Assembly: GCA_963743205.1 (NCBI GenBank)
Contig: CAVUOW010000003.1
Coordinates: 169,497 to 233,496, forward strand
Length of the DNA stretch: 64,000 nt
From: Candidatus Aminicenantes bacterium
Lineage (GTDB): Bacteria; Acidobacteriota; Aminicenantia; Aminicenantales; Saccharicenantaceae
Direction of reading: 5' to 3'
Part shown: piece after piece, positions 2,041 through 62,213 of the stretch
Numbering within the stretch: position 1 is the first letter of the stretch
Layout of the letters: each line of letters starts with the position of its first letter
Made by a program: the position numbers and the translations under genes
The notes under the pieces: generated by a model
Database searches by the model: none
Seen by the model: the letters and a program-made list of their open reading frames with translations, nothing else
Told to the model about the DNA's origin: nothing

Positions 2041-2103
2041 TTATTCTCCTGACGACTTAGAATGACCTCATTCAGTCGTTAGCTCTCGTCATTCCCTTCG
2101 GGC

Positions 2104-37342: not shown

Positions 37343-37577
37343 AATGGGGTCGGACCACAGCAATAAGAACTAAATCAATGACATAGGTCCATTTATGACG
37401 TTGCTGGAGGCTTAAAATCCGTGTTTTTGACCCCAAAAATGAGACTTGACCTATATGGACAACCATTTTGGCGATCGTTGTTTTTGGCCCAAAAAATGCG
37501 GGACTTAAGCACTCTAGTTCACAAAAAATGGGGTCAAATCACTGATAATGTTCCGATTGCTGTGGTCCGACCCCAAA
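37343..37577. mobile_element. family-B doublet B1 (two inverted ~100-nt arms; REPIN/MITE-like)
   Basis: AATGGGGTCGGACCACAGCAATAAGAACTAAATCAATGAC...GTTTTTGACCCCAAAAA ... GTTTTTGGCCCAAAAAA...GATTGCTGTGGTCCGACCCC. Ends anchored on the 37421 ORF frame. Confidence 0.85.
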
Positions 37578-37686
37578 GCCTTGAGCCGGGAGGCGGTTTT
37601 GGGATAATGTGAGCGGTAAGTGACGCCCCATATTGAGCGGGGCCGGCGCCCCGGGCGGACTCAAGTGGGATGGATGGAGGGAAATC

Positions 37687-39358
37687 ATGAAAAGAACCCG
37701 TAACACCTGGATCGCTCCATTGATCCGGCCAGCGATCATCGTCGCGTTGGCCGTGACACTCGGCATTGCCTGCGGCCCGTCGGCTGAGCCCCCCTCAAAA
37801 AAGGCGGCGGCGACGGCGAAGACGGTCGAGGCCGTTTTCCCTCTCGAGGAGGCGACGATCGCCGGTCTTCAGGAGATGATGACCTCGGGAAAGTCGACTT
37901 CGGAGCAGCTCGTCAAACTTTACTTCGAGCGCATCGATAAGGTCGACCAGGGTGGCTCGGGGCTTAATGCCGTGATCCAAAAGAACCCCGACGCCCTGGC
38001 CATCGCCCGCGAGCTCGACAAGGAGCGCAAGGAGAAGGGGCCGCGCGGACCGCTCCACGGCGTTCCCGTCCTGATCAAAGACAACATCGACACGGCCGAT
38101 CAGATGGAGACGACGGCGGGTTCGCTCGCCCTGCTCGGCTCCAAGCCGGCCAAGGATGCGTTCATCGTCAAGCGCCTGCGGGAGGCGGGGGCCGTCATCC
38201 TCGGCAAGACGAACCTCAGCGAGTGGGCGAATTTCCGTTCGTCGCGCTCGACCAGCGGCTGGAGCGGGCGAGGCGGGCAAACGAAGAACCCGTACGCGCT
38301 CGACCGGAACCCGTCGGGGTCGAGCTCGGGCACGGCGGCGGCCGTGTCGGCGAACCTCGTGACGGTGGGCATCGGAACTGAGACCGACGGTTCGATCGTC
38401 TCGCCGGCGTCGTGCTGCGGGATCGTCGGGCTCAAGCCGACCGTGGGGCTCGTCAGTCGCGCGGGGATCGTTCCGATCGCCCACTCGCAGGACACGGCCG
38501 GGCCGATGGCGCGGACGGTCAGCGACGCGGCGACGCTCCTCGGCGCGATGGCGGGGCCCGACCCGAACGACCCGGCGACGCAGCAGAACGGCGTCCACTT
38601 CTTCCAGGACTATCGGGATTTCCTCAAGCCGGGCGGGTTGCGCGGGGCGCGCATCGGCGTCCTGCGGGCGAAGGCTTTCAATTTCGTGAGCCGGCTCGAC
38701 CCCATTCTGCAGAACGCGATCGACGTCATGAAGGCGGAAGGGGCCGAGGTCATCGATCCCGTCGAATTTCCGACGCTCGGCAAGACGGACGACGCGGAGT
38801 ACGAGGTCCTTCTCTACGAGTTCAAAGCCGATCTCGAGACCTACTTTGCGGCGAGGCCGGGGGCGGCGGTGCGGACGTTGGAGGATCTCATCGCCTTCGA
38901 CCTGAAGAACGCCGACCGTGAGATGCCTTTCTTCGGCCAGGAGATCGTGGAGCAGGCGGCCAAGAAGGGCCCGCTGACCGACAAGGCCTATCTCGAGGCG
39001 CTGGCGAAGTGCCGCGAGCTCATGCGGGAGAAGGGCATCGACGCGGTGCTTGCGGCTCACAAGCTCGACGCGCTCGTCGTCCTGACGAACGGGCCGGCCC
39101 ACATGACGGACCTGGTCAACGGGGACTCGTTCTCGGGCAGCAGCTCGTCGCCGGCGGCGGTCGCAGGATATCCGACGATCACACTGCCGGCGGGGTGGGT
39201 CCTCGGCCTGCCGGTCGGGCGTCTCGCTTATCGGCAAGGCTTGGAGCGAACCGGAGCTGATCCGGCTGGCATTCGGCCTCGAACAAGCGCTGGGGATGCG
39301 GAAAGCTCCGCGCCTGCTCCCGACCTTGGATCTCAAAGGGGTCGGACCACAGCAATAA
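37687..39358 (+). CDS. amidase-signature-family amidase, secreted/lipoprotein-like; frame break near the 3' end
   Basis: ATG 37687 gives MKRTRNTWIAPLIRPAIIVALAVTLGIACG. Motifs VLIKDNIDT and NPSGSSSGTAAAV. After ...GLPVG (about 39214-39222, GTCGGGCGTC) the +1 frame reads VSLIGKAWSEPELIRLAFGLEQALGMRKAPRLLPTLDLKGVGPQQ*. The stop TAA 39356-39358 lies inside element B2. Confidence 0.8.
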
Positions 39359-39586
39359 GAATTAAATCAAATAGTTAGGGCCATTTTTCGGCCCTTAAAA
39401 GGCTTAAAATGGACGTTATTGATGCCAAAAACATAAAAAGAGAATTCCCAGGCGATCGCCTTATAGGCCGGGACGCAGACGAATCGCGCTTTTTGGCCCA
39501 AAAAACGCACGAATTAGGCCAAAATACAGGGGAAAACAATGGCTAAGTATGTGATTATATTTCGATTGCTGTGGTCCGACCCCATT
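39335..39586. mobile_element. family-B doublet B2
   Basis: AAAGGGGTCGGACCACAGCAATAAGAATTAAATCAAATAG ... TTTTTGGCCCAAAAAACGC ... CGATTGCTGTGGTCCGACCCCATT. Ends anchored on ORF 37633..39378 and ATG 39605. Confidence 0.85.
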
Positions 39587-41679: not shown

Positions 41680-41914
41680 AATGGGGTCGGACCACAGCAA
41701 TACGAATGAAATCAAATATATATGGCCAAATTTGAACGTCGAAAGTGCCTTAAATCGGCGTTTTTGCCACCAAAAACGAAAATCTGCCAAAACGGCCAGG
41801 CCAATACCGTGTCGTCAATTTTGACCGCAAAAACGCTTAGTTAAGGCAAGAAAAGACGTGAAAACGCTTGTTAATTTACTGATTATATTCAGATTGCTGT
41901 GGTCCGACCCCAAT
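41680..41914. mobile_element. family-B doublet B3
   Basis: CAATGGGGTCGGACCACAGCAATACGAATGAAATCAAATA ... GTTTTTGCCACCAAAAAC ... CAGATTGCTGTGGTCCGACCCCAAT. Begins 20 nt after the GH36 stop and ends 14 nt before the ABC start. Confidence 0.85.
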
Positions 41915-42660: not shown

Positions 42661-44501
42661 GCGCGAGCGGCGCGGGCGGCGCGATCGCGGGCGGGGACCG
42701 TAGCGCGGGCGTGGACCGTAGCGCAGGCGGGGGCGCGAGCGGGCCGGGTCGGGTGGAGCCGGACTCGCGACGGCCGAGCAGGGCCCAGACGGTCCTGACG
42801 GTCATCCGGGCCGGCCTCAGGTCGAACTTCGGGCTGGCGACCCTGAAGCACAGGCTGCTCAAAGAAAAAAAGGACCGCTGGCTCGTGCCGCTCTTCGGGG
42901 TCGCCGCGATCGGCGTCGTCCCGATGTTCTACGGCATCGTCCTGCTCATCGAGAACGTCTATCTCGTACTCAAGCCGATGGGCCAGGAGAGGGCGCTGCT
43001 ATCGTTCGGGATCCTGGCGGGGCAGCTCCTGATCCTGCTCTTCGGGATCTATTACGTCATCGCGGCGTTCTATTTCGCCCGCGACCTCGAGTTCCTCATC
43101 CCTCTGCCTCTCCGGCCGGGCGAGGTCATGGCCAGCAAGTTCGCGGTCATCGTGATCAACGAATATCTGACGGTCGCGGCGCTCGTGCTGCCGGTCGTCG
43201 TTACGGTGGGCGTGCTGGCGCGGGGCGGGGTCGGCTATTGGGTGAACGCGACGCTCGTGTATCTGACGCTGCCGATCATCCCGCTGGCGCTTGTCTCGCT
43301 CGTAGTCGTGGCCATGATGCGCTTCATCAACGTCAGCCGGAAGAAGGACGCGCTCATTCTCGTCGGCAGTCTCGCCCTCATCGGCCTGTCGTTCGCGCTG
43401 CAGATCGGGCTCGGGAAGTCGACGGGGGGCGGAGGCCCGGAGGCGAGCGCCCAGGCCGTGGCCGCTTTCTTCACCTCGTCCGACAGCCTGCTCAACAAGA
43501 TCGGCGCGATCTTCCCGCCGGGGATCTGGGCGACGAAGGCGATCGCCGGGGGATTCAGCGCGGAGGGGCTGGCGAACCTGGCGCTGCTCCTGGGCGTGTC
43601 GGTCGTGTTATTCGCCGGGATGGTCGTGGCGGCCGAGAAGCTCTTCTATCGCGGCGTCATCGGACTTGGCGAGACGACGGGGAAACGGCGGAGGCTGACG
43701 CGCGACGAGATGTCGCGGCGCGTGACGTCGGGGCGCAGGGCGTTCGCGGCGATCTTCGGGCGCGAATGGAAGATCATGAACCGGACGCCGATCTTCCTGC
43801 TCAACGGCATCCTCGTCAGCGTTTTTGTCCCGGCCATCTTCGTCCTGATGGCGACCCTCAACAAGGGAGCGAGGGGAGGGGGAGGCCCGGGCGGAGGCGG
43901 AGGCGATCCCATGGCCCTCCTGACGACCATGATATCGGCCAATCCGCTTGTGGCCATCTTGGGTGCGGCGCTGTTCATGACCATCTGCGGCAGCATCAAC
44001 GGCACCGCGTCGTCGACGTTCTCGCGGGAGGGGGCGCAGTTCTGGATCTCGCGGATGATCCCGGTCGCGCCGAGAGAGCAGGCGGCGGCCAAATTCCTGC
44101 ATTCGTATCTGGTGGCGATGCTGGGCGTCGCGACGGCGTCGGTCGTGGCTGCGGTCTTCCTTCACATGAGGGCGGTGCACCTTGCGCCTGCGGTCGCATT
44201 GTCGCTCGTGGCGGGGGTGCTGCTGACGGCGGTCGGCATGATGATCGATCTCGCGAGGCCGCTTCTCGACTGGACAAACCCGCAGAAGGCGATCAAGCAG
44301 AACCTCAACGTGCTTCTGGCGCTGTTAGCGGACGTCGGCATCCTGACGGCGGTTTTCTTCGGGGCGAAGTCGCTGATCCGGGCCAAGCTCGCGACGAACG
44401 TCGTGCTGGGCGTGGTGTTTGTAGGATTGGGCGCGCTGGCTGCAGCCAGTTACATGGCCCTCCTCAAGTTCGCCGACAAGCGTTATCCAGAGATTGAGTA
44501 A
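42657..44501 (+). CDS. large polytopic permease partner of the ABC ATPase (putative ABC-exporter membrane protein)
   Basis: ATG 42657 overlaps the ATPase stop (ATGA). 614 aa with a G/A/S/R-rich N-terminus followed by many hydrophobic helices. Stop TAA 44499-44501 overlaps the first bases of element B4. Confidence 0.6.
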   Translation: MSASGAGGAIAGGDRSAGVDRSAGGGASGPGRVEPDSRRPSRAQTVLTVIRAGLRSNFGLATLKHRLLKEKKDRWLVPLFGVAAIGVVPMFYGIVLLIENVYLVLKPMGQERALLSFGILAGQLLILLFGIYYVIAAFYFARDLEFLIPLPLRPGEVMASKFAVIVINEYLTVAALVLPVVVTVGVLARGGVGYWVNATLVYLTLPIIPLALVSLVVVAMMRFINVSRKKDALILVGSLALIGLSFALQIGLGKSTGGGGPEASAQAVAAFFTSSDSLLNKIGAIFPPGIWATKAIAGGFSAEGLANLALLLGVSVVLFAGMVVAAEKLFYRGVIGLGETTGKRRRLTRDEMSRRVTSGRRAFAAIFGREWKIMNRTPIFLLNGILVSVFVPAIFVLMATLNKGARGGGGPGGGGGDPMALLTTMISANPLVAILGAALFMTICGSINGTASSTFSREGAQFWISRMIPVAPREQAAAKFLHSYLVAMLGVATASVVAAVFLHMRAVHLAPAVALSLVAGVLLTAVGMMIDLARPLLDWTNPQKAIKQNLNVLLALLADVGILTAVFFGAKSLIRAKLATNVVLGVVFVGLGALAAASYMALLKFADKRYPEIE

Positions 44502-44737
44502 TGGGGTCGGACCACAGGAATCAGAACAATATCAGTAAGTTAGGTCATCTCTTGAGGCGCTTTTGGCCTTATCTACGGTGTTTTTGCCATCAAAAACGAG
44601 AACTGACGGGGATTAGTGCGGCTACTAATCGAGACGTCGTTTTTAGCATCGAAAATGGCCGAGTTAAGCCAAATAGGCCGCCCAATTTGAGGCTAAGTTG
44701 CTGATTATTATTTAATCTGCTGTGGTCCGACCCCATT
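44500..44737. mobile_element. family-B doublet B4
   Basis: (T)AATGGGGTCGGACCACAGGAATCAGAAC ... GTTTTTGCCATCAAAAAC ... TAATCTGCTGTGGTCCGACCCCATT. Followed by a 12-nt direct repeat ACCCCATTGACC x2. Confidence 0.85.
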
Positions 44738-45498: not shown

Positions 45499-45540
45499 CG
45501 GTGTCTCCTGCGGACAGGTTTACAGGGCTCTCATTATAAG

Positions 45541-45640
45541 CGTTTTTGGCCCCAAAAAGCCCGGAGATAAGCCTTTTATAACGCAAAAAACGGGCTTAAG
45601 TTACAGATTTATATGAGATCTGCTGTGGTCCGACCCCATT
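45541..45640 (-). repeat. family-B singlet arm B5
   Basis: CGTTTTTGGCCCCAAAAAGC...GGGCTTAAG...GATCTGCTGTGGTCCGACCCCATT. Single arm only. The terminus overlaps the DsrE-like stop (ACT TAA TGGGGTC on the minus strand). Confidence 0.8.
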
Positions 45641-46106
45641 AAGTGAAAATGATCTGGCCGCCGGCCGAGATCTCGTAGAACTTCCCGACGTTGATGACCG
45701 AATCGACCTGGGGCGCGAAATCCTCTTTTTTCAGCTTGAACATGTCGACCGTGGCCTTGCAGGCGTAGAGCTTGCACCCGGCGTCCGCGACCATCTCGAT
45801 GAACTCTGGCACGGGCGGGATGTCGATCTTGTCCATCGTCTTCAGCATCATCGACGTGGCGAACGCCGAGAACCCCGGCAGGATGCCCAGGATCGACGCC
45901 ATGTGCATGCCCGGGTTGCCGACCGTCGCGATCTTGATCTTGCCCATGCGCTTCTTGGTGATCGCGTCGAGCCCGAAGAACGTGAAGAACAGGTTCGCCT
46001 CGATGCCGTCCATGCGCGCGCCGTTGGCCATGATGAGCCCGGGGTAGACGCCATCCAGGCCGCCCCTCGAAACGACGATCGAAACCTTCTTGATCTTATC
46101 TTCCAT
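45639..46106 (-). CDS. DsrE/DsrF-family sulfur-relay-like protein
   Basis: 155 aa. KVSIVVSRGGLDGVYPGLIMANGA...LFFTFFGLD...GCKLYACKATVDMF pattern as in DsrE2-like proteins. Neighbour of tusE/dsrC-like and sqr-like genes. Confidence 0.65.
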   Translation of the reverse strand: MEDKIKKVSIVVSRGGLDGVYPGLIMANGARMDGIEANLFFTFFGLDAITKKRMGKIKIATVGNPGMHMASILGILPGFSAFATSMMLKTMDKIDIPPVPEFIEMVADAGCKLYACKATVDMFKLKKEDFAPQVDSVINVGKFYEISAGGQIIFT

Positions 46107-46245
46107 TGCTTATCCCTCCAACTTCAATCTCATTTCGGATATTCTTGAAGCGCAGCATTGTGTCAACGCCCACTTCTGGTGATCGCTTCTCAGGATCCAC
46201 TTGCTGTCCTAAGACCCCATCCTGCTCGCCGCGCCCGGCCGGCCG

Positions 46246-47886: not shown

Positions 47887-47978
47887 GGGTATGACTCTCT
47901 ATCTGAGCATAAGCGTGAGCATAAGGGCCGATTCGGAAGACAAATGCTAGCATTATTAGGGCATTTCTTCAAATTCCC

Positions 47979-49031
47979 ATTGGGGTCGGACCACAGCTAT
48001 CGGAACGTTTTCAATAGCTTAAGTCCGATTTTGAGATCTTTTAGGGCTTAAAGTCGGCGTTTTTGGCCCCAAAAACGAAAATCGGATTGCCCTTGGTCCG
48101 TCTGAGCACGGTCGAATCGTCTGCGATGCCGCCTCGCACGATCTCAGCCGCGCCGATCTTGTTTCCCAATTCGGCTTGAAAACCTCGAAGGTACTTTTCG
48201 CTGCCGACGGCGACGCTCTCGGTCCAGATCGGGTCGCGCTCGATCTGTCCCTTGCGGATCGCGATGTCGATCCACTCGGATCGCCGGGCCAGGTGAGCGC
48301 GGATATCAGGCGCGCCCGTCAGCTCCACGAGCTTGCTCGAATCGACCAGGAGCCCGCGGCGTCGCTCGCGAGGGACGGCGATCTCGCGCACGAGCTCGTG
48401 ATACCCGCAATAGGCCCATTCGCGAGGGTGGGCGACGACGCCGGCCCTGACCATATTCATGTCGACGTAGGTGAGGCATCGCGCGAGTTGGGCCCCGTCC
48501 TCGACGGCGGTGCCGTGATAGCGGTCCTCCCAGAACGCGCCGCGACGCTCTTTCCTCGCGTTGTAACCCTGAGCGATGCGGGACTCGATGAGCTGAAGCG
48601 CGCTCGGCAAGGCCGTGGCCTGCGCTCGCGCTCGGCTGGCGAGAACCATCGCGAGCAGATGGATGTGATTCGACGTGATCATGAAGTTCAAGATGATCAG
48701 GCCGTAGCGGATCCTCGCTTGGTGCGCCCAGTGGAGCCAGATCAGCTTGTCGCGGCGAAACTTGAGCAGGAATTCCTTCTTGTGACACCGATGCGTGATA
48801 TGCCAGATCCGGCCGGGAAGGAAATTCCGGTTTGCTCGAGGCATCGCGTTTCCGCCGTCCTGCTCGTCCTGTCTCCGAAGAAGTAGACGCATCAAGGGAC
48901 CGTATCTTCTCACGAGACCCAGGAGCAAGACGGATGTTTTTGACCCAAAAAACAATGGTTTTAAGCCTTTTTTATGCCCAAAAGAGTGGCTAACTTATTG
49001 ATTATTATCGGATCTGCTGTGGTCCGACCCC
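47979..49031 (-). mobile_element. family-B full-length copy B6: two inverted arms flanking a Y1/HUH (RAYT/IS200-like) transposase gene
   Basis: Left arm ATTGGGGTCGGACCACAGCTATCGGAAC...GGGCTTAAAGTCGGCGTTTTTGGCCCCAAAAACG. Right arm GTTTTTGACCCAAAAAAC...GGATCTGCTGTGGTCCGACCCC. Both are homologous to the arms of the short copies. Ends anchored on ORFs 47680..48051 and 49005..49787. Confidence 0.85.
48041..48844 (-). CDS. REP-associated tyrosine transposase-like protein (Y1 HUH transposase, IS200-like domain)
   Basis: ATG 48844 gives MPRANRNFLPGRIWHITHRCHKKEFLL. HUH motif SNHIHLL. Catalytic-Tyr helix YVDMNMVRAGVVAHPREWAY (compare the YI..NPVRAGLV of RAYTs). 267 aa, intact. The 3' end reads into the left-arm hairpin. 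Confidence 0.8.
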   Translation of the reverse strand: MPRANRNFLPGRIWHITHRCHKKEFLLKFRRDKLIWLHWAHQARIRYGLIILNFMITSNHIHLLAMVLASRARAQATALPSALQLIESRIAQGYNARKERRGAFWEDRYHGTAVEDGAQLARCLTYVDMNMVRAGVVAHPREWAYCGYHELVREIAVPRERRRGLLVDSSKLVELTGAPDIRAHLARRSEWIDIAIRKGQIERDPIWTESVAVGSEKYLRGFQAELGNKIGAAEIVRGGIADDSTVLRRTKGNPIFVFGAKNADFKP

Positions 49032-49043
49032 ACTTATGCTAAG

Positions 49044-49751
49044 ATGGCCTCCGCGAGGTGCATGATGGCCGAAAAAAACACAAAGCCGGCGCAACCCCCC
49101 GCGAAGCCGGCGCAACCCCCCGCGAAGCCGGCGAAGCCCGCGCCCCCCAAGCGCCTGGCGCGGTGCTGGGGAGAGCCCGATGACCCGCTCGTCCGCGATT
49201 ACCACGACCTCGAATGGGGGACCCCGCTCCATGACGACCGCAAGATCTTCGAGTTTCTTATCCTCGAAGGCATGCAGGCCGGCCTCAGCTGGAATCTGAT
49301 CCTCAAGAAACGGGAGAACTTCCGGCGCGCCTTCCGAGGTTTCGATCCCGAGAAAGTCGCCCGGTTCACGGCGCGCGACGTCCAGCGTCTCCTCAACGAC
49401 GCCGGCATCATCCGCAACCGCCTGAAGATCCTCGCCGCGATCAACAACGCCAAACGCTTCCTCGACGTCGAGAAAGAGTTCGGCACGTTCGATCGTTACA
49501 TTTGGGGCTTCGTCGGCGGCAAGCCGATCCGCTCGGGCCTGCAGTCGTTCGCGAACATGCCTGCCCGCACGCCCCTGTCCGACGCCATCAGCAAGGACCT
49601 CAAGGGGCGCGGCTTCAAGTTCGTCGGCTCGACCGTCGTTTATTCGCACATGCAGGCGACGGGCATGGTCAACGACCACCTGGTCGGGTGCTTCCGTTAC
49701 AGGGAACTCGCCCGGTCGGCCAAAGCCGAAAAACAACCGCGAAAAAAATAG
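49044..49751 (+). CDS. tag: DNA-3-methyladenine glycosylase I
   Basis: YHDLEWGTP...FEFLILEGMQAGLSW..IL.KRENFR.AF..FD...IIRNRLKI...N...F......FG.F..Y.W.F are Tag family signatures. Has an extra K/P/A-rich N-terminal repeat. Confidence 0.85.
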   Translation: MASARCMMAEKNTKPAQPPAKPAQPPAKPAKPAPPKRLARCWGEPDDPLVRDYHDLEWGTPLHDDRKIFEFLILEGMQAGLSWNLILKKRENFRRAFRGFDPEKVARFTARDVQRLLNDAGIIRNRLKILAAINNAKRFLDVEKEFGTFDRYIWGFVGGKPIRSGLQSFANMPARTPLSDAISKDLKGRGFKFVGSTVVYSHMQATGMVNDHLVGCFRYRELARSAKAEKQPRKK

Positions 49752-49792: not shown

Positions 49793-51134
49793 ATGTCCCA
49801 ACCGCATCGAATTCGACCGATCCGCTTCATCAAGGACGAGTACGTCCGAGCTTATCGCGGATTGCCGCGGCGCGCCTGGATCCTGTTCGCCGTCAACCTG
49901 GTCAACTCGTCCGGCTCGATGGTCATCTTTTTCCTGGCGCTCTACTTGACGCGCAAGCTCGGGCTCACGACCGCGCGGGCGGGTCAGGCGCTGAGCCTCT
50001 ACGGCGTGGGCTCGCTCGCGGGGGCCTTCGCGGGGGGGTGGCTCTCCGACCACGTCGGGTCGATCACGGTCCAAAAGGTGAGCCTGGCCGTGTGCGGCGT
50101 CACGCTCATCGTTCTGGGACAGGTCCGCACGGTGGCCGGGATCCTGCCGTTGCTCTTCGGATTGGCGCTGTTCGCGGGCATGCTCTATCCGGCCAACGCC
50201 ACGTCGATGTCGAAGATCTGCCCGGCCGAGCTTCAGGTCAAGGGATTCGCGCTCAATCGGCTGGCGAATAATCTCGGGGCGACGATCGGTCCGGCCGTCG
50301 GAGGCGTGCTGGCGCTCAGCGATTATCGGCTGCTTTTCTGGGCGGACGGCCTGACGTCGCTCGCGGCGGCGGCGGTGTTCGCGGTGCTGTGGAAGGGTGC
50401 GAGGGCCGGCAGAGAGACGCGGAGCCGCGAGCCGAAGTGCGCGGGGGCCGCACAAGCTGTCGGAGCGGAGCAGGGCCGGGTGGATACGACAGAGACCGAG
50501 CGGCGACCGGCGTCTGGCCCGGCGATCGGGGGCCGGCCAAGGCCCAGCTCGCCCTGGCGCGACGTTCCTTTTCTGCTGTTGATGCTCATCTGGCTCGTCT
50601 GGTGCTCGGTCTTCGTCCAACTGCTGACGACGTTCCCCATCTACATGCGCAATGTTTATGGGCTCGCGGAAAACCGGATCGGCCAACTCTTCGCCGTCAA
50701 CACGATCATGATCGTCACCCTCGAGATGATCCTGATGGAAAGGATCCGGAAGCATGCGCAGGCTCGTGCGATCAACATATCTATCGTGCTGCTTGGCGAT
50801 CGGATTCGGGATGATGCCGCTGGGGCGGGGGTTCGCGTTCGGCGCGATCACGGTGGCGATATGGACATTCGGCGAGATGCTGAGCATGCCGCTCGTGACC
50901 GCCCTGATCGCGGGGCGCGCCGACGACTCGAACCGCGGCCGGTATATGGGACTGCTCAGCTTCTCGTTCTCGCTGGCGTTCATCATCGCTCCGGCGGGCG
51001 GCACCGCGATCTACGAGCAGTGGGGCCCTGATGCGGTCTGGTACGTCTGCTGCGGACTCTGCCTCCTCTTGGCGGCAGCCTTTTCGGCCCTGAGACCGCG
51101 TCTCTATGGGGTCGGACCACAGCAGATTGAATAA
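49793..51134 (+). CDS. MFS transporter, frame break
   Basis: 12-TM-like hydrophobic profile. After ...TLEMILMERIRKHAQ the sensible sequence continues in the 50754..51134 frame (...AIGFGMMPLGRGFAFGAITVAIWTFGEMLSMPLVTALIAGRA). Break within 50755-50795. The C-terminus ...LYGVGPQQIE* is read from element B7. Confidence 0.75.
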
Positions 51135-51359
51135 AAATCAATAACTTAGGCCGAAATTTGAGGCTCAAATAGCCCCTAATTGAAGCTTTTTGACATCAAA
51201 AATAGAGAACGCCTTGGCGCCGTCTCCCGAGCCAAGACTATTGCCTGATGCGAGTCCTTTTGCTTTTGCCCATGAAAATGCCGTTTTTAAGCCAAAAAAG
51301 AGTTGAAAATCTTGGTTAACTTATTGATATTGTTCTGATAGCTGTGGTCCGACCCCATT
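51105..51359. mobile_element. family-B doublet B7
   Basis: TATGGGGTCGGACCACAGCAGATTGAATAAAAATCAATAACTTAGGCC ... CTGATAGCTGTGGTCCGACCCCATT. Very similar to B9. Confidence 0.85.
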
Positions 51360-51562
51360 GGGAACCAACTGCGCCGGCTATTCGGAACCCATATCCAGGC
51401 CTAGCCCCGGCCTCGAACCTGCCCCACGCGCTTTCCCAGGCCCCTTCCCGGCCCGTTTCTACGTGGCCCGCATCCGAAACAAGAATCTCGTTACGCCACG
51501 TGATGCCGATGTCAACTTGGGGCCAATCGATCAGATTCTCTGGCCTAATCGTCGCCTGGAGA

Positions 51563-51669
51563 TAGGTTTCTATTTTTGCCCCTGAAAATACGGGTTTTAA
51601 GCCAAAAAAGAGCCGAAAAGTAGGGCTAACTTGTTGATATTTTTCGGATAGCTGTGGTCCGACCCCATT
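51563..51669 (-). repeat. family-B singlet arm B8
   Basis: TTTTTGCCCCTGAAAATACGGGTTTTAAGCCAAAAAAG...CGGATAGCTGTGGTCCGACCCCATT. The terminus overlaps the stop of 51668..54463 (ATC TAA TGGGGTC on the minus strand). Confidence 0.8.
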
Positions 51670-54463
51670 AGATGTTCCAGCGATACGACACCTTGAGCAG
51701 GAAGATGTTGTCGCCGGGGGCGGAGAAGAGGTCGCCCAGGTCACGGCCGATCCGCAAGTCACCCGGGTTCGCGTAATCGGCGCGGTTCTGCGTCCAGACG
51801 AAATACAGCAGGCTGCCCGGCTTGTACTCCCATCTCAGCACGACGGTGCCTCTCAGCGACTTGTAATTGAAATCCGGATTCCCGAACGCGAACGACGGGG
51901 CCGCGCCCGCCGGCCCGTCCGGGTCGACCGTGTAGGCGCCGCTCGCCGCGTCGTAGGCGATCGTCGAGCCGTTGCCGCTCCCTCCGCTCCCGCTCCCGCC
52001 CGTTCCGCCGCCGCCCAACGTCCCGCCGCCGTACACGTTGTACGCAAACGCCTTCGCCGCCGCCAGCTCCTTGAACGCGTCGTAATGCCCGACCGCGAGG
52101 AACGGCTGCATGTACGCCTGCAGCGTCAGCTTCGGCGTGAACGTCCAGTCGAGCCGGATCTCGCTGCCGAGCACCTTCTGATCGATCCTGCCGAATACGT
52201 AGCGGCTCCCGTACGTCGGCGTCATCAGCGGGTCGCCCACGCGCGTCACCCACTGCAGCTCGTTCTTCTCGATCGTGAGCGTCGGCCCGACGCTCAAGCT
52301 CACGTTCGACCCCGGCTTCCACCGCGCCGAGAGCTGGCCCTGCCACTCTTCCGACACCGCCGCCCGCTGGTACGTCGTCCCCTGGAACTCGAACACGACC
52401 GGCTTCCGGGTGTCCGTGTTCAGCATCAGGTTGACCTGCCAGCCCGACGGCATGATGGCCAGCGGCCCGCCCCGCGTCAGCGTCTTGCTGATGGTGTCCG
52501 GGTTGTACGCGAACATCGTGTCGAACTGCCAGAAGTTCCGGAGCTGGCCCTGGAACTCGAGGATGCCGCCGTCCCAGTTCTTGTTCCAGCCGAAGTCGTA
52601 GTTCCGGAACCAGCCGCCGATCACGAGCGCATATCGGAAGACCTTCCCGGGCTTCGTCCACTGATATCCGGGGATGAACTGCATATTGATGATGTCCGAC
52701 CCGCCGTACTGGAAGCCGGTGTCGTTCGGGTCGAACCCCGGCGAGATGGCGCCCACGTTGGCCAGCACGAGGAGATTCCCGTTCTGCTTGGCCAGGTTGA
52801 GCCGCCCGGCCCAACCGCCCAGGCTCCTGGCCGTCGGGTCGACGCTGACGTAGCCCGCGTCCGGCCGCTGGAAATAATGCATCGACGAGTTCTGGAGCCG
52901 CAGGATGTCCTCGACGCTGCCCTCGACCCGCGTCGCCCCCGCCCAGCCGCCGATGACCCAATCCTTCTTTTTATCGAGCGAGGTCCACCCGTCGACGGCC
53001 AGCGAGAACGCGTTCTTGTTGAGGATGCCGGCGAGCGTCCCGGTCGAATCGCTGCCGAGATCGCGCACGACGCCCGTGGCCATCATCCCGATCCCGCTCT
53101 TCCCCTCGGCGATGTCTTTCTGGACGCGCACCGTCCCGTAGTACGAGAGCGGCTCGACCTCCTGCCGCAGCCGCGTCCCGAGCTGGTCGATCTGGGCGAA
53201 CTCGCGCCCCGTCAGCGCGCTGAGCCAGCCGACGTTCCAGCTGCCGCCGAGCTTCCCGGTGAGCTTGGCCGCGCCCAGGATCGTCGTCCGGTCGGGCGTG
53301 CGCGCGAACCCGTCCTCGGTGACGTAGCCCTGCGGCTCGCGCCCGATGCGCCGGCTGTAGAAGAAGGTCGGCTGCGGCCAGTTGATGTTGGCGTTCATGA
53401 ACACGCCGCCGCGCCCGAAATTATTGAAGAGCGACGCCCCCTCGATGAAGAAGGGCCGCTTTTCCTCGTAGTACGTTTCGTAGGCCGACAGATTCAGGAC
53501 GGCCGGGTCGACCTCGACCTGCCCGAAATCCGGGTTGACCGTCGCGTCCAAGGTCAGGTTGCTCTTGAGGCCGACCTTGAGATCGAAGCCGGCGTTGCCG
53601 AGGGCGCGATGCCCGGTCTCGAACGGATTGCCGGCCTGCGACGGGCGGAGCTGGGCCTGTCCGACCATGTACGGCATGAACTCGACGCGCCCGCCCGGGC
53701 TGATGCCCCGGAGGCCTTCGAGCCGCGCGAACCGCGACACGATCGCCGCGTCGGTCTTGGGGCTCCAGTTGAAGCTCGACTGCTCGTTCTTGCGCCGGAT
53801 CATGCGGCGGAAGTTGACGCCCCAGACGTAATCCTCTTTCTTCGGGAAGCGGATCTGGTTGAAGGGGATGCGCATCTCGATCGTCCAGCCGTCGCCGTTG
53901 ACCGCGGCCTTGTTCTCCCAGACGCCGTCCCACGAGTCGTCGTCGTTGACGTCGTTCGAGAGCGCGGCGTCGGTGATCGAGCCGGCCGGGTTCGCGTAGA
54001 ACGCGTAGCCCGAGCGCTTGTCGAAGTAGGGATCGACGGCGACCATGAACCAGTCGGAGTCGGTCTGCGCGTCGCGGCGGCCGAGGCGCTTGAGGATCTT
54101 CGACGGGTCGGAGTCGTGACAGAACGCGGCGACGTAGAGGGCGTGATCGTCGTAGGCGACCCAGACGTCGGTCGGTTCGGTCGCGGGCGAGCCGTCTTGG
54201 GGATCGTTCTGGGTGAAGCCGGTCGCGGGGGGCGTCTTCCACGCGGCCTCGTCGAGGCGCCCGTCGAGGACGATGGGCTCGGTCGCGCGGACGGCCTGGA
54301 CGATCTTGGTGTCGGGAGGCGGGAGCGCGGGGCGGGCGGAGGCGCGCGGGGGGCGGGTGGCGGTACCGGTCGGGGTGGGGGTGGCGGCACTGGCGGACAT
54401 GGTTAGGGCGAAGGCAAGGGCCAAGGCCAGCCCGAACGTGGCGGATAAAGCTTTCTTCTTCAT
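51668..54463 (-). CDS. DUF5916-type outer-membrane protein with N-terminal CBM9-like domain
   Basis: 931 aa with a signal peptide. IVLDGRLDEAAWKTPPATGFTQNDP...WVAYDDHALYVAAFC...DWFMVAVDPYFD pattern, followed by a long beta-rich region. Family name from recollection. Confidence 0.65.
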   Translation of the reverse strand: MKKKALSATFGLALALAFALTMSASAATPTPTGTATRPPRASARPALPPPDTKIVQAVRATEPIVLDGRLDEAAWKTPPATGFTQNDPQDGSPATEPTDVWVAYDDHALYVAAFCHDSDPSKILKRLGRRDAQTDSDWFMVAVDPYFDKRSGYAFYANPAGSITDAALSNDVNDDDSWDGVWENKAAVNGDGWTIEMRIPFNQIRFPKKEDYVWGVNFRRMIRRKNEQSSFNWSPKTDAAIVSRFARLEGLRGISPGGRVEFMPYMVGQAQLRPSQAGNPFETGHRALGNAGFDLKVGLKSNLTLDATVNPDFGQVEVDPAVLNLSAYETYYEEKRPFFIEGASLFNNFGRGGVFMNANINWPQPTFFYSRRIGREPQGYVTEDGFARTPDRTTILGAAKLTGKLGGSWNVGWLSALTGREFAQIDQLGTRLRQEVEPLSYYGTVRVQKDIAEGKSGIGMMATGVVRDLGSDSTGTLAGILNKNAFSLAVDGWTSLDKKKDWVIGGWAGATRVEGSVEDILRLQNSSMHYFQRPDAGYVSVDPTARSLGGWAGRLNLAKQNGNLLVLANVGAISPGFDPNDTGFQYGGSDIINMQFIPGYQWTKPGKVFRYALVIGGWFRNYDFGWNKNWDGGILEFQGQLRNFWQFDTMFAYNPDTISKTLTRGGPLAIMPSGWQVNLMLNTDTRKPVVFEFQGTTYQRAAVSEEWQGQLSARWKPGSNVSLSVGPTLTIEKNELQWVTRVGDPLMTPTYGSRYVFGRIDQKVLGSEIRLDWTFTPKLTLQAYMQPFLAVGHYDAFKELAAAKAFAYNVYGGGTLGGGGTGGSGSGGSGNGSTIAYDAASGAYTVDPDGPAGAAPSFAFGNPDFNYKSLRGTVVLRWEYKPGSLLYFVWTQNRADYANPGDLRIGRDLGDLFSAPGDNIFLLKVSYRWNI

Positions 54464-54586: not shown

Positions 54587-54840
54587 AATGGGGTCGGACC
54601 ACAGCAGATTAAATAAAAATCAATAACTTAGGCCTCAATTTAGGGCTCTAATACCCCTTAACTTGAGCTTTTTGACCCCAAAAATAGAAAACACCCCTGC
54701 ACCTCCCGCAAGCCATAACCATCGCGACGAAGTGAGTCCTTTGTTTTTGCCCATGAAAATGCCGTATTTAAGCCAAAAACAGACCAAAAATATCGGCTAA
54801 CTTATTGATATTATTCGGTTGGCTGTGGTCCGACCCCATT
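54587..54840. mobile_element. family-B doublet B9
   Basis: CAATGGGGTCGGACCACAGCAGATTAAATAAAAATCAATAACTTAGGCC ... TTTTTGACCCCAAAAAT ... GGTTGGCTGTGGTCCGACCCCATT. Confidence 0.85.
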
Positions 54841-54868: not shown

Positions 54869-55882
54869 ATGATTCTAGCGCACATGGATACACGCTTCGG
54901 AAAGTTCGTCCACGATTTCCCCGGGCGCCTCGCCATGCCCCTCTGCGTCTATTCCGGGCTCGAGATCACCGGCGAATCGATCGAGGACATGATCAGCGTC
55001 CCCGGCTCGCAGTTCAAGGCCATCATGGCCCTCCAGGACCGCTATCGGACGCCCGTCCTTCTCACGGCCATCGACACGACCGCCGAAGCCGAAGCCTACG
55101 GCTGCGAGGTCAAGTTCTCGGCGCGCGAGGCCCCGTCGATCGTCGGGCGCCTCGTCACGACCGCCGCCGACGTCGCCGCCCTCGCCGACCCCGTGCCCGG
55201 CGATGCCCGGACGCGCGTGCCCATCGAAACGGCCTGGCGCCTAACCGCCGAAGTAGGGGAGAGCGTCCCCGTTCTCGGCACGATGCTCGGCCCGTTCGCG
55301 CTCGCCACCCGCCTCTTCGGCCTCAACGAGACCATCGCCGCGACCACCGCCGAACCCGAGACGATCGAGACCCTCCTCGACAACGTGACCGGATTCCTCT
55401 GCCGCTACGCGCTCGAGTTCCGCGAGACGGGCGCCTGGGGCATCGTCGTGGCCGAGGGGGCCGCCGGCCGGCTCTCACCCGAAGGCCTAGCCCGCTTCTC
55501 GACGCACTTCGTCAAGCGGATCATCAAGGCCGTCGAGACCCCGGACTTCTCCGTCGTCGTCCACAACTGCCGTGCCGCGATCGACCACCTGGACGCGATC
55601 ATGGCCTCCGGCGCCTCCATGTATCATTTCGGGGCGGGGATGGACATCGTCGCGGCGCTCGCCAAAGCCGGCCCCGAGATCGTTCTCAGCGGGAACCTCG
55701 ACGCCAAGAAGATCTTCCTCAAAGGCACGCCCCAGATCGCCGGGGACGCGACGCGCGCGCTCCTCGAGGCGACCCGCCCCTACAAGAATTTCGTCATCTC
55801 CTCCGGCTGCGACATCCCGCCGGGCGCCACGCTGGCGAACCTCAACGCCTTCTTCCGCGCCGTCTCCGACTTCAACAAGTAA
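54869..55882 (+). CDS. uroporphyrinogen-decarboxylase (URO-D) family protein / methyltransferase-like
   Basis: Start moved to ATG 54869, because the 54839 TTG lies in element B9. TIM-barrel URO-D-like sequence (...AEAEAYGCEVKF..., ...VVHNC..., ...ISSGCDIPPG). Confidence 0.7.
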   Translation: MILAHMDTRFGKFVHDFPGRLAMPLCVYSGLEITGESIEDMISVPGSQFKAIMALQDRYRTPVLLTAIDTTAEAEAYGCEVKFSAREAPSIVGRLVTTAADVAALADPVPGDARTRVPIETAWRLTAEVGESVPVLGTMLGPFALATRLFGLNETIAATTAEPETIETLLDNVTGFLCRYALEFRETGAWGIVVAEGAAGRLSPEGLARFSTHFVKRIIKAVETPDFSVVVHNCRAAIDHLDAIMASGASMYHFGAGMDIVAALAKAGPEIVLSGNLDAKKIFLKGTPQIAGDATRALLEATRPYKNFVISSGCDIPPGATLANLNAFFRAVSDFNK

Positions 55883-55885
55883 GTC

Positions 55886-55987
55886 TTCATTTTTGCCCCC
55901 AAAAACCACCGTTTTAAGGCCTAGAACCCCCTCGAAATGGACCTAAACTATTGATTTGTTTTCGAATTCCTGTGGTCCGACCCCATT
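55886..55987 (-). repeat. family-B singlet arm B10
   Basis: CATTTTTGCCCCCAAAAACCACCGTTTTAAGGCC...CGAATTCCTGTGGTCCGACCCCATT. Begins 3-4 nt after the URO-D stop. Confidence 0.8.
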
Positions 55988-56081
55988 GCCCTCTTGACAA
56001 CCGCCCAGCTTAATTCCTATTATCAAACCAACAATCCCCATTTCAGTCCGGTCCCGGGCCGCTCCCGCCGGGTGAGGACAG

Positions 56082-58363
56082 ATGGACGAAGGGCAGGTTC
56101 TCGAATCTTGGAAGGAGATTTCCGCCTTCCTGGGTCGTGACGTGCGCACTTGCCAGAGATGGGAAATCGAGATGGCCCTGCCCATCCACCGCCTCGACGG
56201 CTCGCCCCGGGCGCGTGTCTTCGCCTATAAAAACGAGCTCAACACCTGGCTCGAGCAGAAGCTCCACGATCACGATACCGCCGCCATCGCTCCCCCGGCT
56301 AAACGCCTCTTCCGCCGCCTCGCCCGCCCGCTCCCCCTCGCCCTCTTCGCCTTCTCGACCCTCGCTCGTCGCATTCACCGTCTGGCGCGCCGTCGTCCCC
56401 CCCAAGCCTCCGCCCCTCCCTGCCGGTTTCGTCCAACCTGTCCTCGCCGTCCTGCCGTTCGAGAACAATTCGGGCGGCAAGCTGCCCGACTATTGGCGCG
56501 ATGCCATCGCCGAGCTGCTCTTTGCCGAGCTTTCCCAGTCGAAATATATCCGCGTCGTCTCGGGCGGCGAGATGATCACGGTCCTCCGGCGCCTCAATTT
56601 GACCGATTCCCCCGCATACTCCTCCGAGGACATCGCGAGGGTCGCCGCCCTCACCCGGGCCGCGCACATCCTGACGGGCAGCTTCGTCAAAGCCGGCGAG
56701 GCGATCGTCATCACGGCCAATCTCCAGGATACGGCCCTCGGCCGAAGCTCCTCCGTCCCTAAGCTCATCGCCCACGACGAATACGACATCATCCCCAAGA
56801 TCGGCAAGCTCGCCGGCGAGATCAAAAAGGCCCTCCGCCTGACCCGGGCCCAGATCGTCTACGATTTCGCCATGGAAGCGGGCCAGGCCGTCACGTCCTC
56901 CCCCGACGCGCTCAAGTATTATGTCGAGGGCCGGCGTCTCCAGCTGAGCAACCGCTGGCCCGAGGCCATCGCCTCGATGGAGAAGGCCATCGCCATCGAC
57001 CCCGAGTTCGCCATGGCCTACCGGACCCTGGCCGTCGCCCAACGCGACCTCGGTCAATATGCCGAGGCCCTGGCCTCCATCAAGAAAGCCCTGGAGTTCA
57101 GCGCCCGCCTTCCCGAGGGGGAGCGCGAGCTCATCGAAGGCCAGCTTGCCTTCTGGGCCGATGATTACGCCAAGTCGATCGAGATCCTGGAAGGGCTCCT
57201 GAAAACGCATCCCGGCCATCTCAACGCCCTGACCTATCTCGGCTACGCCTACAACGGCGCCGGCGACATCGACAGGGCCATCGACTATCAGAGCCTCGTC
57301 ACCAGCAGCCGGAACACGGTCGTGGACGTCCGCACCTTGGCCGCCTATCTCCAGCGAAAGGGGCGTTATCAGGAATCGATCGATCTCCTCCGGTCGTTTG
57401 TCCAGAATGTCGAGGACGCTTGGAACGTCCACCAGATCCTGGCCTATTCTTACGGTTATCTGAGGAATTTCGACGAAGCCCTGGCCGAAGCCCGGATAAC
57501 CTTTCAGGGCAATCCCCGGATGCGGTCGGTCGAGTTCGAAATGCTCGTCTTCAAGGACGACCTCGCCGGGGCCGAGGCTCTGACGGGCCTCGAACAGGTC
57601 TGCCTGGATCGGGGGCGTTTCGCCGCCAATATCGACTTTGCCCGGAAGGAGCTCGTGAATGCCCGGGCCCAAGGGACGATCGACGACGTCGCGGCCGCCA
57701 AACGCCGTCTGGCGTTTGCGCTCGAGAAGGCGGGGCGCTATGCCGAGGCATTAGCCGAGCACGGCGAGTATCTGCGGCTCTCCGCGGAGTCGCGGGCGTC
57801 GGCGGGCCAAGCCGGGTTGCCCTACCGGCCGATCTTCCGGAAGCCGGACCTTTTCGTCAAGGGCAGGATCCAGGCGGAGATGGGCGATGCCGGGGAGGCC
57901 CTGAAGACGGCTGAGGAGCTGAAGTCGGTCATCGACTCGGGCATCAACCGCAAAGAGCTGAAATATTACGAATACATCCTCGGCCTGGTCGAGCTCGGGA
58001 AGGGGAACCCGGCGCGCGCCGCGGAGCTCGTTCGGGAGCGCGTGCGGGCGCCTGGACTTCGAGGATTACTGGACTTCCGAGCAGGCCATCTTCCTCGATC
58101 GGTACGGCGAGGCGCTTCGAGAATCGGGCGACTTCGACAAGGCGCGCGAAACCTACGAAAAGATCACGCTGCTCACGACCGGCCGGCGCGACGACGGCGA
58201 CATCTATGCCCGGGCCTATTACTGGCTGGGGAAGATCGCAGAGCGGAAGGGCGACGCGGCGACGGCGCGCAGCAATTATCGGAAATTCTTAGCGCTGTGG
58301 CAGGGCGCCGACCCCGGCCTGCCCGAAGTCGCGGACGCGAAGGCGCGCCTGGCTGGCAAGTAG
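56082..58363 (+). CDS. membrane-anchored HTH regulator with periplasmic and TPR-repeat region, two frame breaks
   Basis: N-terminus MDEGQVLESWKEISAFLGRDVRTCQRWEIEMALPIHR (HTH), then TM ...PLPLALFAFSTLA / LVAFTVWRAV after a frame change near 56350-56370. Next come PVLAVLPFENNSGG and many TPR repeats. A second change near 58025-58055 restores ...LDFEDYWTSEQAIFLDRYGEALRESGDFDKARETYEKI...ARLAGK* (TAG 58361-58363). Confidence 0.6.
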
Positions 58364-58448
58364 GGGTCTGACGTGCAGTTCTGCGCCCTCTTTGGCTAAA
58401 GAGCGCAGAGTGTAGGCCTGACCCCGTCTGATTCTTATTCTGTGGGCT

Positions 58449-62018: not shown

Positions 62019-62107
62019 GGTCGCCTCCGATCGAACTGGGCGCCTTTTAGGAGCGCGGGCGCCAGGCGGAGGATATAACGGACTTGACTCCAATTCAAGC
62101 GCGGGTG

Positions 62108-62213
62108 ATTTGGCGTTTATAGCCCCAAAAACACCATAATTAGGCCAATTTAGGCCATTGAAACGACCTTAAGTCATTGATTTTTTAAAGAGAAGCTGTG
62201 GTCCGACCCCATT
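62108..62213 (-). repeat. family-B singlet arm B11
   Basis: GCGTTTATAGCCCCAAAAACACC...GGCCAATTTAGGCC...AAGCTGTGGTCCGACCCCATT, followed by a perfect 15-nt tandem duplication GACCCCATTACTCAG x2 (62205-62234). Confidence 0.8.

Follow-up and report, generated by a model that had tools for sequence, protein, structure and literature searches.

What is the element of ~1.05 kb at 47981..49032 (minus strand) in the 64-kb stretch of Candidatus Aminicenantes bacterium DNA analysed here, hereafter the window, and how does it relate to the many short, gene-less copies of its ends that surround it? A preliminary description, made from the sequence letters, had read it as a gene for a REP-associated tyrosine transposase (RAYT; REP, repetitive extragenic palindromic sequence) set between two long inverted arms, with an architecture that fits neither RAYT/REP systems nor IS200/IS605 elements and may be undescribed. 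Here we find that the locus is probably a TIRtron, in which a fixed and selected gene encodes a Y1 HUH nuclease of the TIRYT type and is accompanied by a population of cognate arms that lack the gene. The family is of the known TIRtron/TIRYT kind and not a new type of system.

The complete long element consists of an upstream arm, the TIRYT gene and a downstream arm, in a layout of terminal inverted repeat (TIR), gene and TIR. Its tips, TGGGGTCGGACCACAGC at 47981-47997 (plus strand) and 49016-49032 (minus strand), are complementary at 17/17 positions and form a perfect 17-nt inverted repeat. Both arms are ~105 nt long and are matched by the arm profile (nhmmer E 1e-24 to 3e-26). The upstream (5') arm spans 48927..49032 on the minus strand, with an inner palindrome, GTTTTTGACCCAAAAAAC, at 48936-48953, and a leader of ~80 nt lies between it and the ATG at 48844. 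The downstream (3') arm spans 47981..48088 on the plus strand, has its inner palindrome, CGTTTTTGGCCCCAAAAACG, at 48058-48077, and overlaps the gene (48041..48844, minus strand, 267 aa) at its stop and final ~16 codons. With up to three mismatches allowed, the tip motif occurs at 18 sites in the window against 0.22 expected from shuffles, none of 100 shuffles reaching 18, and all 18 window arms align without gaps over ~100-110 nt. The elements have 42-46% G+C, compared with 62.8% for the window. The 64-kb window contains no second copy or fragment of the gene; only its last ~11 codons, which are encoded by the arm, recur.

The encoded protein starts with MPRANR, as do all its homologs, and carries SNHIHLL at residues 58-64 and YVDMNMVRAGVVAHPREW at 126-143. 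Residues H60, H62, Y126, N130, M131 and W207 are invariant across 58 aligned relatives, down to 47% identity, and Y126 aligns with the catalytic Tyr of published RAYT/TIRYT sequences. The NCBIfam profile REP_Tyr_transpos (NF047646) matches the protein with E 1.9e-17 over profile positions 2-146 of 146; the score of 63.5 bits does not reach the equivalog cut-off of 80. All nine published TIRYTs that we compared match the same profile (best E 5.2e-24), one of them with a printed score of 78 bits, also just below the cut-off. A match to the Pfam profile Y1_Tnp (PF01797), which had been proposed as a check, was found in the 58/58 aligned relatives (E<0.01, best 2.5e-12), while the window protein itself stays sub-threshold at 20.4 bits against a gathering threshold of 23.

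We then modelled the protein with AlphaFold2 from the 58-relative alignment (pLDDT 85.5, pTM 0.86). The top Foldseek match of the model in the PDB is 4ER8, a complex of the E. coli REP-associated transposase with REP (E 1.8e-6, TM 0.72 normalised to target), followed by IS608, ISDra2 and IS200 TnpA at E ~1e-3. A PDB search with the sequence returned nothing at E<=1, so that 4ER8 was found by fold search only. Residues ~147-258 form an extra helical/beta domain that is confidently modelled in the context of the alignment; from single sequence this domain alone gives a pLDDT of 33 and an unusable model. It has no Pfam match, DnaA_C/HTH included, which leaves its helix-turn-helix (HTH) nature putative. 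Sequence motifs and modelled fold together support the assignment of the window protein to the HUH/Y1 enzymes of the RAYT lineage. In these respects the preliminary description has held up well: the two inverted arms around one intact 267-codon open reading frame (ORF; 48041-48844, minus strand) lie within 2 nt of where it had placed them, and the HUH motif, the Tyr helix and the RAYT-lineage assignment are borne out by the conserved residues, the NCBIfam profile and the fold match.

In family members the inner palindrome of the downstream arm always lies within the coding region (e.g. 48041-48088 in the window; 6711-6822 in the locus L077), where it encodes a poorly modelled C-terminal protein tail (...FVFGAKNADFKP in the window; ...LFDTQKGILRP in L077). 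Because of this constant position, the tail looks like a by-product of a constraint at the DNA level.

The published class that this locus resembles was defined by Di Nocera et al. (2013), who found many RAYT-like genes flanked by long TIRs instead of REPs and named the proteins TIRYT and the units TIRtrons (PMC3733652). Many of these TIRs share GGGGWSAS at similar distances from the gene, and single, dimeric and grouped TIR copies are moderately abundant in some genomes, including that of the acidobacterium Koribacter versatilis (PMC3733652). Quentin et al. (2018) put 20/26 TIRYTs in TnpAY1 subclass 2.1 (PMC6006769), which is characterised by a long C-terminal HTH-like tail, a lack of REPs and low copy number, and which equals RAYT group 1 of Bertels (PMC6006769; PMC5581495). 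We rebuilt nine TIRYT sequences from Additional file 5 of Di Nocera et al. 2013, and phmmer connects the window protein to these with E 5e-22 to 7e-8; it does not link it to the E. coli RAYT. Alignment of the window family to the published TIRYTs by hhalign (probability 99.9, E 7.8e-34, 219 columns) includes the C-terminal domain and pairs the family tail ...VAVGSEKYLRGFQAELG with ...PLGxExFvxxxExxxG of the TIRYTs. The window tip GGGGTCGG agrees with GGGGWSAS at 7/8 positions, and GGGGTCAG, found in the relatives L005 and L006, at 8/8.

Our family and the TIRtrons thus have in common a RAYT-like HUH/Y1 protein starting MPRxxR, long TIRs around the gene in place of REP hairpins, a GGGGWSAS-type tip, TIR copies that occur as singles, dimers or groups, and a homologous C-terminal extension; the class is already known from Koribacter. 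Since TIRYTs and TIRtrons have been described, the supposition that the architecture belongs to neither class and could be new is not sustained. The family does differ from the class in several features. Its catalytic helix reads Y-[VI]-D-[ML]-N-M instead of the class-2 Y-x3-N-P (Y-V-D-M-N-M in the window protein), it has W-[AP]-x-C-G-Y in place of W-S-S, and its C-terminal domain lacks the DnaA_C/HTH Pfam match. Its arms, conserved across phyla, are ~105 nt long and hold a further GGGGYC within a T5/A5 palindrome, and the repeat density is far above the ~12 copies per replicon reported for group 1. We also considered subclass 2.3 of Quentin (NHYH, YVDLNP, 325 aa, Chromatiales), compared by its description, and do not identify our family with it; the Chromatiales members of our family have 246-262 aa, NH[IV]H and YIDLNM. 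What is new here is therefore modest, namely a large distinct clade (Y-x3-NM, not NP), a whole arm conserved across phyla, and unusually dense repeats in Aminicenantes-like genomes. A literature search on the tip sequence returned unrelated papers only, with no mention of the tip or of such elements in Aminicenantes in the papers searched.

From the tip inward, YAA-TGGGGTCGGACCACAGC is followed in each arm by a conserved AATCAAT, by a stretch of variable sequence with the limits TTAG...GCTTAA, and by a T5-GG(SS)CC-A5 palindrome ~80-97 nt from the tip, close to where a hairpin had been noted at the outset (~85 nt inside an arm of ~100 nt). The tip sequence is YAATGGGGTCGGACCACAGC and the inner palindrome sequence is CGTTTTTGGGGCCAAAAACG. 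GGGGYC is present twice in each arm, at the tip and, ~83 nt away, in the inner palindrome. This palindrome folds at -6.5 kcal/mol, and its centre repeats the tip motif as TTTTT-GGGG[TC]C-AAAAA in one or the other orientation. The terminus had been described as not itself a hairpin. This agrees with the weak fold of the isolated tip as single-stranded DNA (ssDNA; -2.4 kcal/mol, z -1.8) and needs one refinement, in that the core of the tip is a 9-nt palindrome, GGTC-G-GACC. Across 166 distinct tips the palindrome is not extended beyond GGTC-N-GACC, and a REP-like hairpin at the tip was rejected on the basis of this and the weak fold. Longer units fold more stably as ssDNA: the downstream arm of the long element (47981..48088) at -18.5 kcal/mol (z -3.05), and the whole doublet at 37345..37575 at -51 kcal/mol (z -7.9), as a long imperfect hairpin in which the tips pair into a closing stem of 20 bp.

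Arms can be divided into left and right types, with identities of 61% for left-left, 58% for right-right and 55% for left-right comparisons (permutation p 0.001). Within a doublet, the left and the right arm share only 53% identity once the 17-20-nt tips are excluded. In the window, the inner centre is C-rich in 6/7 classifiable left arms and G-rich in 10/11 right or solo arms. The doublets starting at 51107 and 54589 are alike at 84% and 80%, arm for arm, which implies that they were copied as a unit, and doublets in general appear from their sequences to copy as units. All eleven window elements are co-oriented, whatever the direction of the flanking genes, which fits a strand-specific ssDNA chemistry. 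The GC skew of the window is weakly positive and flattens after 48 kb; it does not allow the leading and lagging strands to be assigned, so the co-orientation is not tied to replication direction. In metagenome contigs the classification of arms as left or right by the inner loop is noisy, and the multi-element contigs give no independent support for co-orientation because they are mostly orthologous to the window. A permissive Rfam scan of 37-56 kb gave only a chance match to an internal ribosome entry site, outside the elements, and the window contains no tRNA genes.

Solo arms and doublets were defined from copies of the tip motif in the window, which holds six doublets (231-251 bp), four solo arms and one group of a single arm plus a doublet, so that gene-less arms outnumber genes by >10:1. 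The arms-only doublets lie at 37345..37575 (231 bp), 39337..39584 (248 bp, its left terminus with one mismatch, AGGGG...), 41682..41912 (231 bp), 44502..44735 (234 bp), 51107..51357 (251 bp) and 54589..54838 (250 bp). The solo arms, all right-type and on the minus strand, lie at 45537..45638, 51562..51667, 55877..55985 (terminus with one mismatch) and 62102..62211. All of these were identified by tip motif and arm profile. The doublet at 44502 abuts the TAA stop of the upstream gene, the terminus of the arm at 45537 abuts the stop codon of a DsrE-like gene, and that of the arm at 51562 abuts the stop codon of gene 51668-54463. All 11 elements fall within the last 27 kb (37345-62211), a span of 25 kb, and fill nearly every intergenic gap at 37-56 kb, and no arms are found in the first 37 kb of the window despite the intergenic gaps there. 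The shared arms and the lack of any gene fragment in the window support, at the level of sequence, the original proposal that the short elements are arms-only derivatives of the long copy.

At these gene ends, the TAA stops of three flanking genes stand directly against an element tip (44499-44501, 45639-45641 and 51668-51670), the YAA outside TGGGG supplying the stop. The ORF at 37633-39378 ends 42 nt inside the doublet 39337-39584, and its last 13 codons are element-derived. Together these suggest that elements insert at or across gene ends, or that they prefer certain targets.

Is the gene a resident of this chromosome or a passing insertion? The gene order Tag glycosylase / gene / SQR-like oxidoreductase-DsrC-DsrE-TerC is kept in relatives whose proteins are 93% and 73% identical. 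The locus L001 is collinear with the window at 90.6% nucleotide identity over 8.8 kb, and L004 is collinear at 76-85%. The ratio of nonsynonymous to synonymous substitution rates (dN/dS) of the gene is 0.19-0.20, at a dS of 0.18 for L001 and ~1.0 for L004. By these measures the gene is chromosomally fixed and under purifying selection. The copy count, which had been proposed as a check for the genome, gave one gene in the 64-kb window, and the same syntenic slot in relatives.

The short elements share this history, as they occupy the same intergenic positions in the window, L001 and L004; the doublet at 44502 and the solo arm at 45537 are examples. For eight positionally orthologous arms compared between the window and L004, the 17-nt tips are identical at 132/136 positions (97%) and the interiors at 407/657 (62%), which indicates that the tips are held either by selection or by continual enzyme-dependent renewal. 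The orthologous interiors, at 62%, barely exceed paralogous arms at 55-61%. There is also turnover. L115 has only the right arm at the site of the 37345 doublet, where the window and L102 have a doublet, and L119 and L163 carry a doublet where the window has the solo arm 55877..55985. Directly beside this last element, L119 and L163 are without ~2.8 kb of the window (55985-58796, including gene 56137-58371), and elements may mark the boundaries of rearrangements or indels.

The family extends well beyond this lineage, with >6,000 proteins at E<1e-3, mostly of 260-280 aa. GTDB places Ca. Aminicenantia in Acidobacteriota. In a scan of one genome per species, which gave at least 584 relatives, the best match was a Ca. 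Aminicenantia metagenome-assembled genome at 66% identity, in keeping with the acidobacterial, Aminicenantes-like host first suggested; further relatives are found in Desulfobacterota, Gammaproteobacteria (Thioalkalivibrio, Neptunomonas), Zetaproteobacteria, Binatia and anammox Planctomycetota. The locus L083, which belongs to a complete Aminicenantes chromosome (CP070750), has another member of the family. We examined the flanks in 80 loci. An inverted GGGTC[GA]G[AG]CC flanks the gene in most of them, ~115-125 nt upstream of the start and ~25-45 nt past the stop, so that the expected arms beside orthologous genes were present. The whole 105-nt arm profile finds arms beside homologs of just 43-50% protein identity, and the architecture of tip plus inner palindrome is conserved from Aminicenantes to Desulfobacterota, Gammaproteobacteria and anammox Planctomycetes. 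With tips and arms beside such distant homologs, the architecture is ancient and a property of the family rather than of one genome. The exact 17-mer tip occurs in >120 metagenome contigs, 80 of which contain 94 arms and 22 doublets (214-257 bp) and only four genes.

Elsewhere the gene is tandem or multi-copy, as in L077, L012, L013 and L037. In L077 (Desulfosediminicola flagellatus chromosome, 1-7712) three gene copies lie within 12 kb, the second and third next to each other, and of their downstream arms two are almost the same in sequence; L012 (4884-6500) has two tandem copies. The behaviour in L077 and L012 is IS-like (IS, insertion sequence) or that of a tandem-amplified gene, in contrast to the fixed single copy of the window lineage.

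Among systems outside the TIRYT class, REPIN-RAYT of Pseudomonas and the REPtron/BIME (bacterial interspersed mosaic element) system of E. coli TnpA-REP are among the closest. Like the locus described here, they combine a single-copy, vertically inherited Y1 nuclease with cognate repeats inverted around the gene and with gene-less doublets and singlets in intergenic space, doublets can fold into a long hairpin, and 4ER8 is the best structural match. A REPIN, as reportedly described by Bertels and Rainey in 2011, is two inverted repeat units that form a hairpin and replicate as one unit. Our locus differs in having neither a 20-40-nt REP hairpin nor a GTAG guide tetranucleotide. Its repeats are built of units of ~105 nt, with only ~53% identity between the arms of a doublet once the tips are set aside, and its protein exceeds theirs by 100 aa and misses the NCBIfam equivalog cut-off. 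IS200/IS605 elements have no TIRs, subterminal hairpins, a Y-x3-Q motif, multiple near-identical copies and often tnpB. IS608 and ISDra2 share with our locus the HUH/Y1 fold, the catalytic residues and functionally asymmetric ends, the last fitting strand-specific ssDNA chemistry, whereas none of the listed IS200/IS605 traits applies to our locus, which has TIRs, a Y-x3-N-M motif and a single gene copy in the window. Miniature inverted-repeat transposable elements (MITEs) of DDE-type ISs (Correia/NEMIS, ERIC, RUP) are also intergenic elements of 200-250 bp with TIRs, often at gene ends. Their cognate enzyme, however, is a DDE transposase rather than a Y1 HUH nuclease, and no target-site duplication was detected here.

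If the protein works like E. coli TnpA-REP and IS608 TnpA, it would act on single-stranded DNA exposed at replication forks and recognise there the motif of the tip and, probably, the further GGGGYC copy within the inner T5...A5 palindrome as well. It may then cleave the tip through a 5'-phosphotyrosine bond to Y126, with H60 and H62 holding the metal, and rejoin the strands. Arm units would be copied or moved in trans, mostly as doublets whose two tips pair into the 20-bp stem, and the gene itself would no longer be mobile. The C-terminal domain, homologous to the HTH-like tail of published TIRYTs, is likely an extra DNA-recognition module.

Several points weigh against a fixed, selected TIRYT gene with cognate arms. 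The activity of the enzyme is assigned only by analogy. That there is one gene copy per genome is judged from synteny and from the low numbers of contigs in each protein cluster, the DNA covered here being 64 kb, and the tandem and multi-copy genes in other lineages indicate that the family is not uniformly domesticated. The closest arm pair in the window is 84% identical and none is near-identical, hence there is no sign of recent transposition there. The sequences beside the 7 paired elements contain no direct repeat and have in common just a loose N-A-[AT] / [AT]-T-N context, and neither a target-site duplication nor a fixed target is definable from these N-A-[AT] flanks. The tip is a weak hairpin, so REP-style hairpin recognition is not established, and it is possible that the C-terminal domain recognises the arms as double-stranded DNA. 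Covariation for arm-internal hairpins is absent, since RNAalifold on 36 arms gave only a 4-bp tip stem with no compensatory changes. Folds of individual arms average z -1.1 against mononucleotide shuffles (RNA parameters), and their stem registers vary. Given the lack of covariation and the varying registers, we claim conserved arm-internal hairpins only for the T5/A5 palindrome.

The TIRtron reading can be taken a step further, to a proposal that we regard as tentative and rather doubtful at this stage. Here the gene-less arms would be a maintained population whose tips are kept by selection at fixed intergenic sites, and the two GGGGYC sites per arm together with a two-domain enzyme (Y1 core plus TIRYT tail) would provide a bipartite recognition unlike that of the REP hairpin and GTAG guide. 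The system would then be a host-integrated replicator that resembles a REPIN, occurs outside Proteobacteria and may be linked to the direction of replication. The proposal draws on the conservation of the tips over a divergence at which synonymous sites saturate, and on the common orientation of all copies on the chromosome.

Could the long copy instead be an ordinary, currently active autonomous IS, a Y1 transposon with TIRs, and the short elements its MITEs, both spreading selfishly? Its classic TIR-gene-TIR layout at ~1.05 kb, the several or tandem copies within 12 kb in other genomes (three in L077, two in L012) and the turnover seen as solo/doublet polymorphism are what such an element would show. 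Group 1 is also the most IS-like group of RAYTs in the survey of Bertels et al. (2017), with 6% duplicates and some members on plasmids (PMC5581495). In the window lineage, however, the gene sits in the same syntenic slot out to dS~1 with a dN/dS of 0.19, there is no second copy or fragment in the window and no match among 72,556 plasmids, and the short elements are old, being 50-65% identical outside the tips and at conserved positions. We therefore consider an active IS unlikely for this lineage.

A different possibility, which ranks below the active IS and which we judge improbable, is that the arms are host cis-elements, such as sites for nucleoid or regulatory proteins or structures at mRNA 3' ends, under host selection, with the nuclease a passenger or maintenance factor that does not mobilise them. 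The occupation of nearly every intergenic gap at 37-56 kb, often immediately past stop codons, would suit such a role, as would the 97% conservation of orthologous tips while interiors drift and the common orientation regardless of flanking gene direction. On the other hand, the nuclease gene and its arms, tips included, are always found together across phyla, and this co-inheritance points to a cognate pair of enzyme and substrate. The absence of arms from the first 37 kb, which has intergenic gaps, also speaks against such a role. Rfam at gathering thresholds has no match in the whole window, and the inner palindrome is A/T-stemmed and lacks the G+C-rich stem and T-run of an intrinsic terminator, as read from the sequence with no terminator scan run. 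That the gene is a decaying relic and the repeats dead MITEs without present function would agree with the highly diverged arm interiors and the absence of identical copies, and is very improbable given an intact ORF with catalytic residues invariant in 58 relatives, a dN/dS of 0.19, and tips 97% conserved where neutral sites are near saturation. For the window lineage, all three of these explanations are less likely than a TIRtron.

To our knowledge, nearly all of what is understood about RAYTs and REPINs comes from enterobacteria and pseudomonads, and the branch with TIRs around the gene (TIRYT, subclass 2.1, group 1) is both the largest one and the one least understood; we know of no biochemistry on it, and the surveys known to us often report it without associated repeats. 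The locus described here is a clean natural example of a TIRtron in an uncultivated Aminicenantes-like lineage, with a fixed gene under purifying selection. Its dense cognate arms have orthologous copies in relatives, which makes selection on the tips measurable, and it provides defined oligonucleotides as substrates, together with the catalytic residues, with which DNA recognition by a TIRYT could be tested in vitro for the first time. It would also extend the idea of a persistent intragenomic replicator to another phylum.

A few smaller features accompany the locus. The dsrE-dsrC spacer (46107-46245) is ~110 nt longer than in L001 and contains CTAAGACCCCATCC, resembling the element tip GACCCCAT; this may be a decayed arm or a chance similarity. 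Just outside the tips of the long element lies a 13-nt inverted repeat, ATCTGAGCATAAG / CTTATGCTAAGAT (92% complementary), at 47901-47913 and 49033-49045. Its right copy (49033-49045) extends over the region of the Tag start codon, and L004 has a similar CTTAGCATA beside the tip. This repeat could be a regulatory site or an older boundary. The Tag-like gene itself (49044-49751), a 3-methyladenine glycosylase homolog, has an N-terminal extension of low complexity, PAQPPAKPAQPPAKPAKPAPP, whose coding DNA is a short tandem repeat at 49070-49150.

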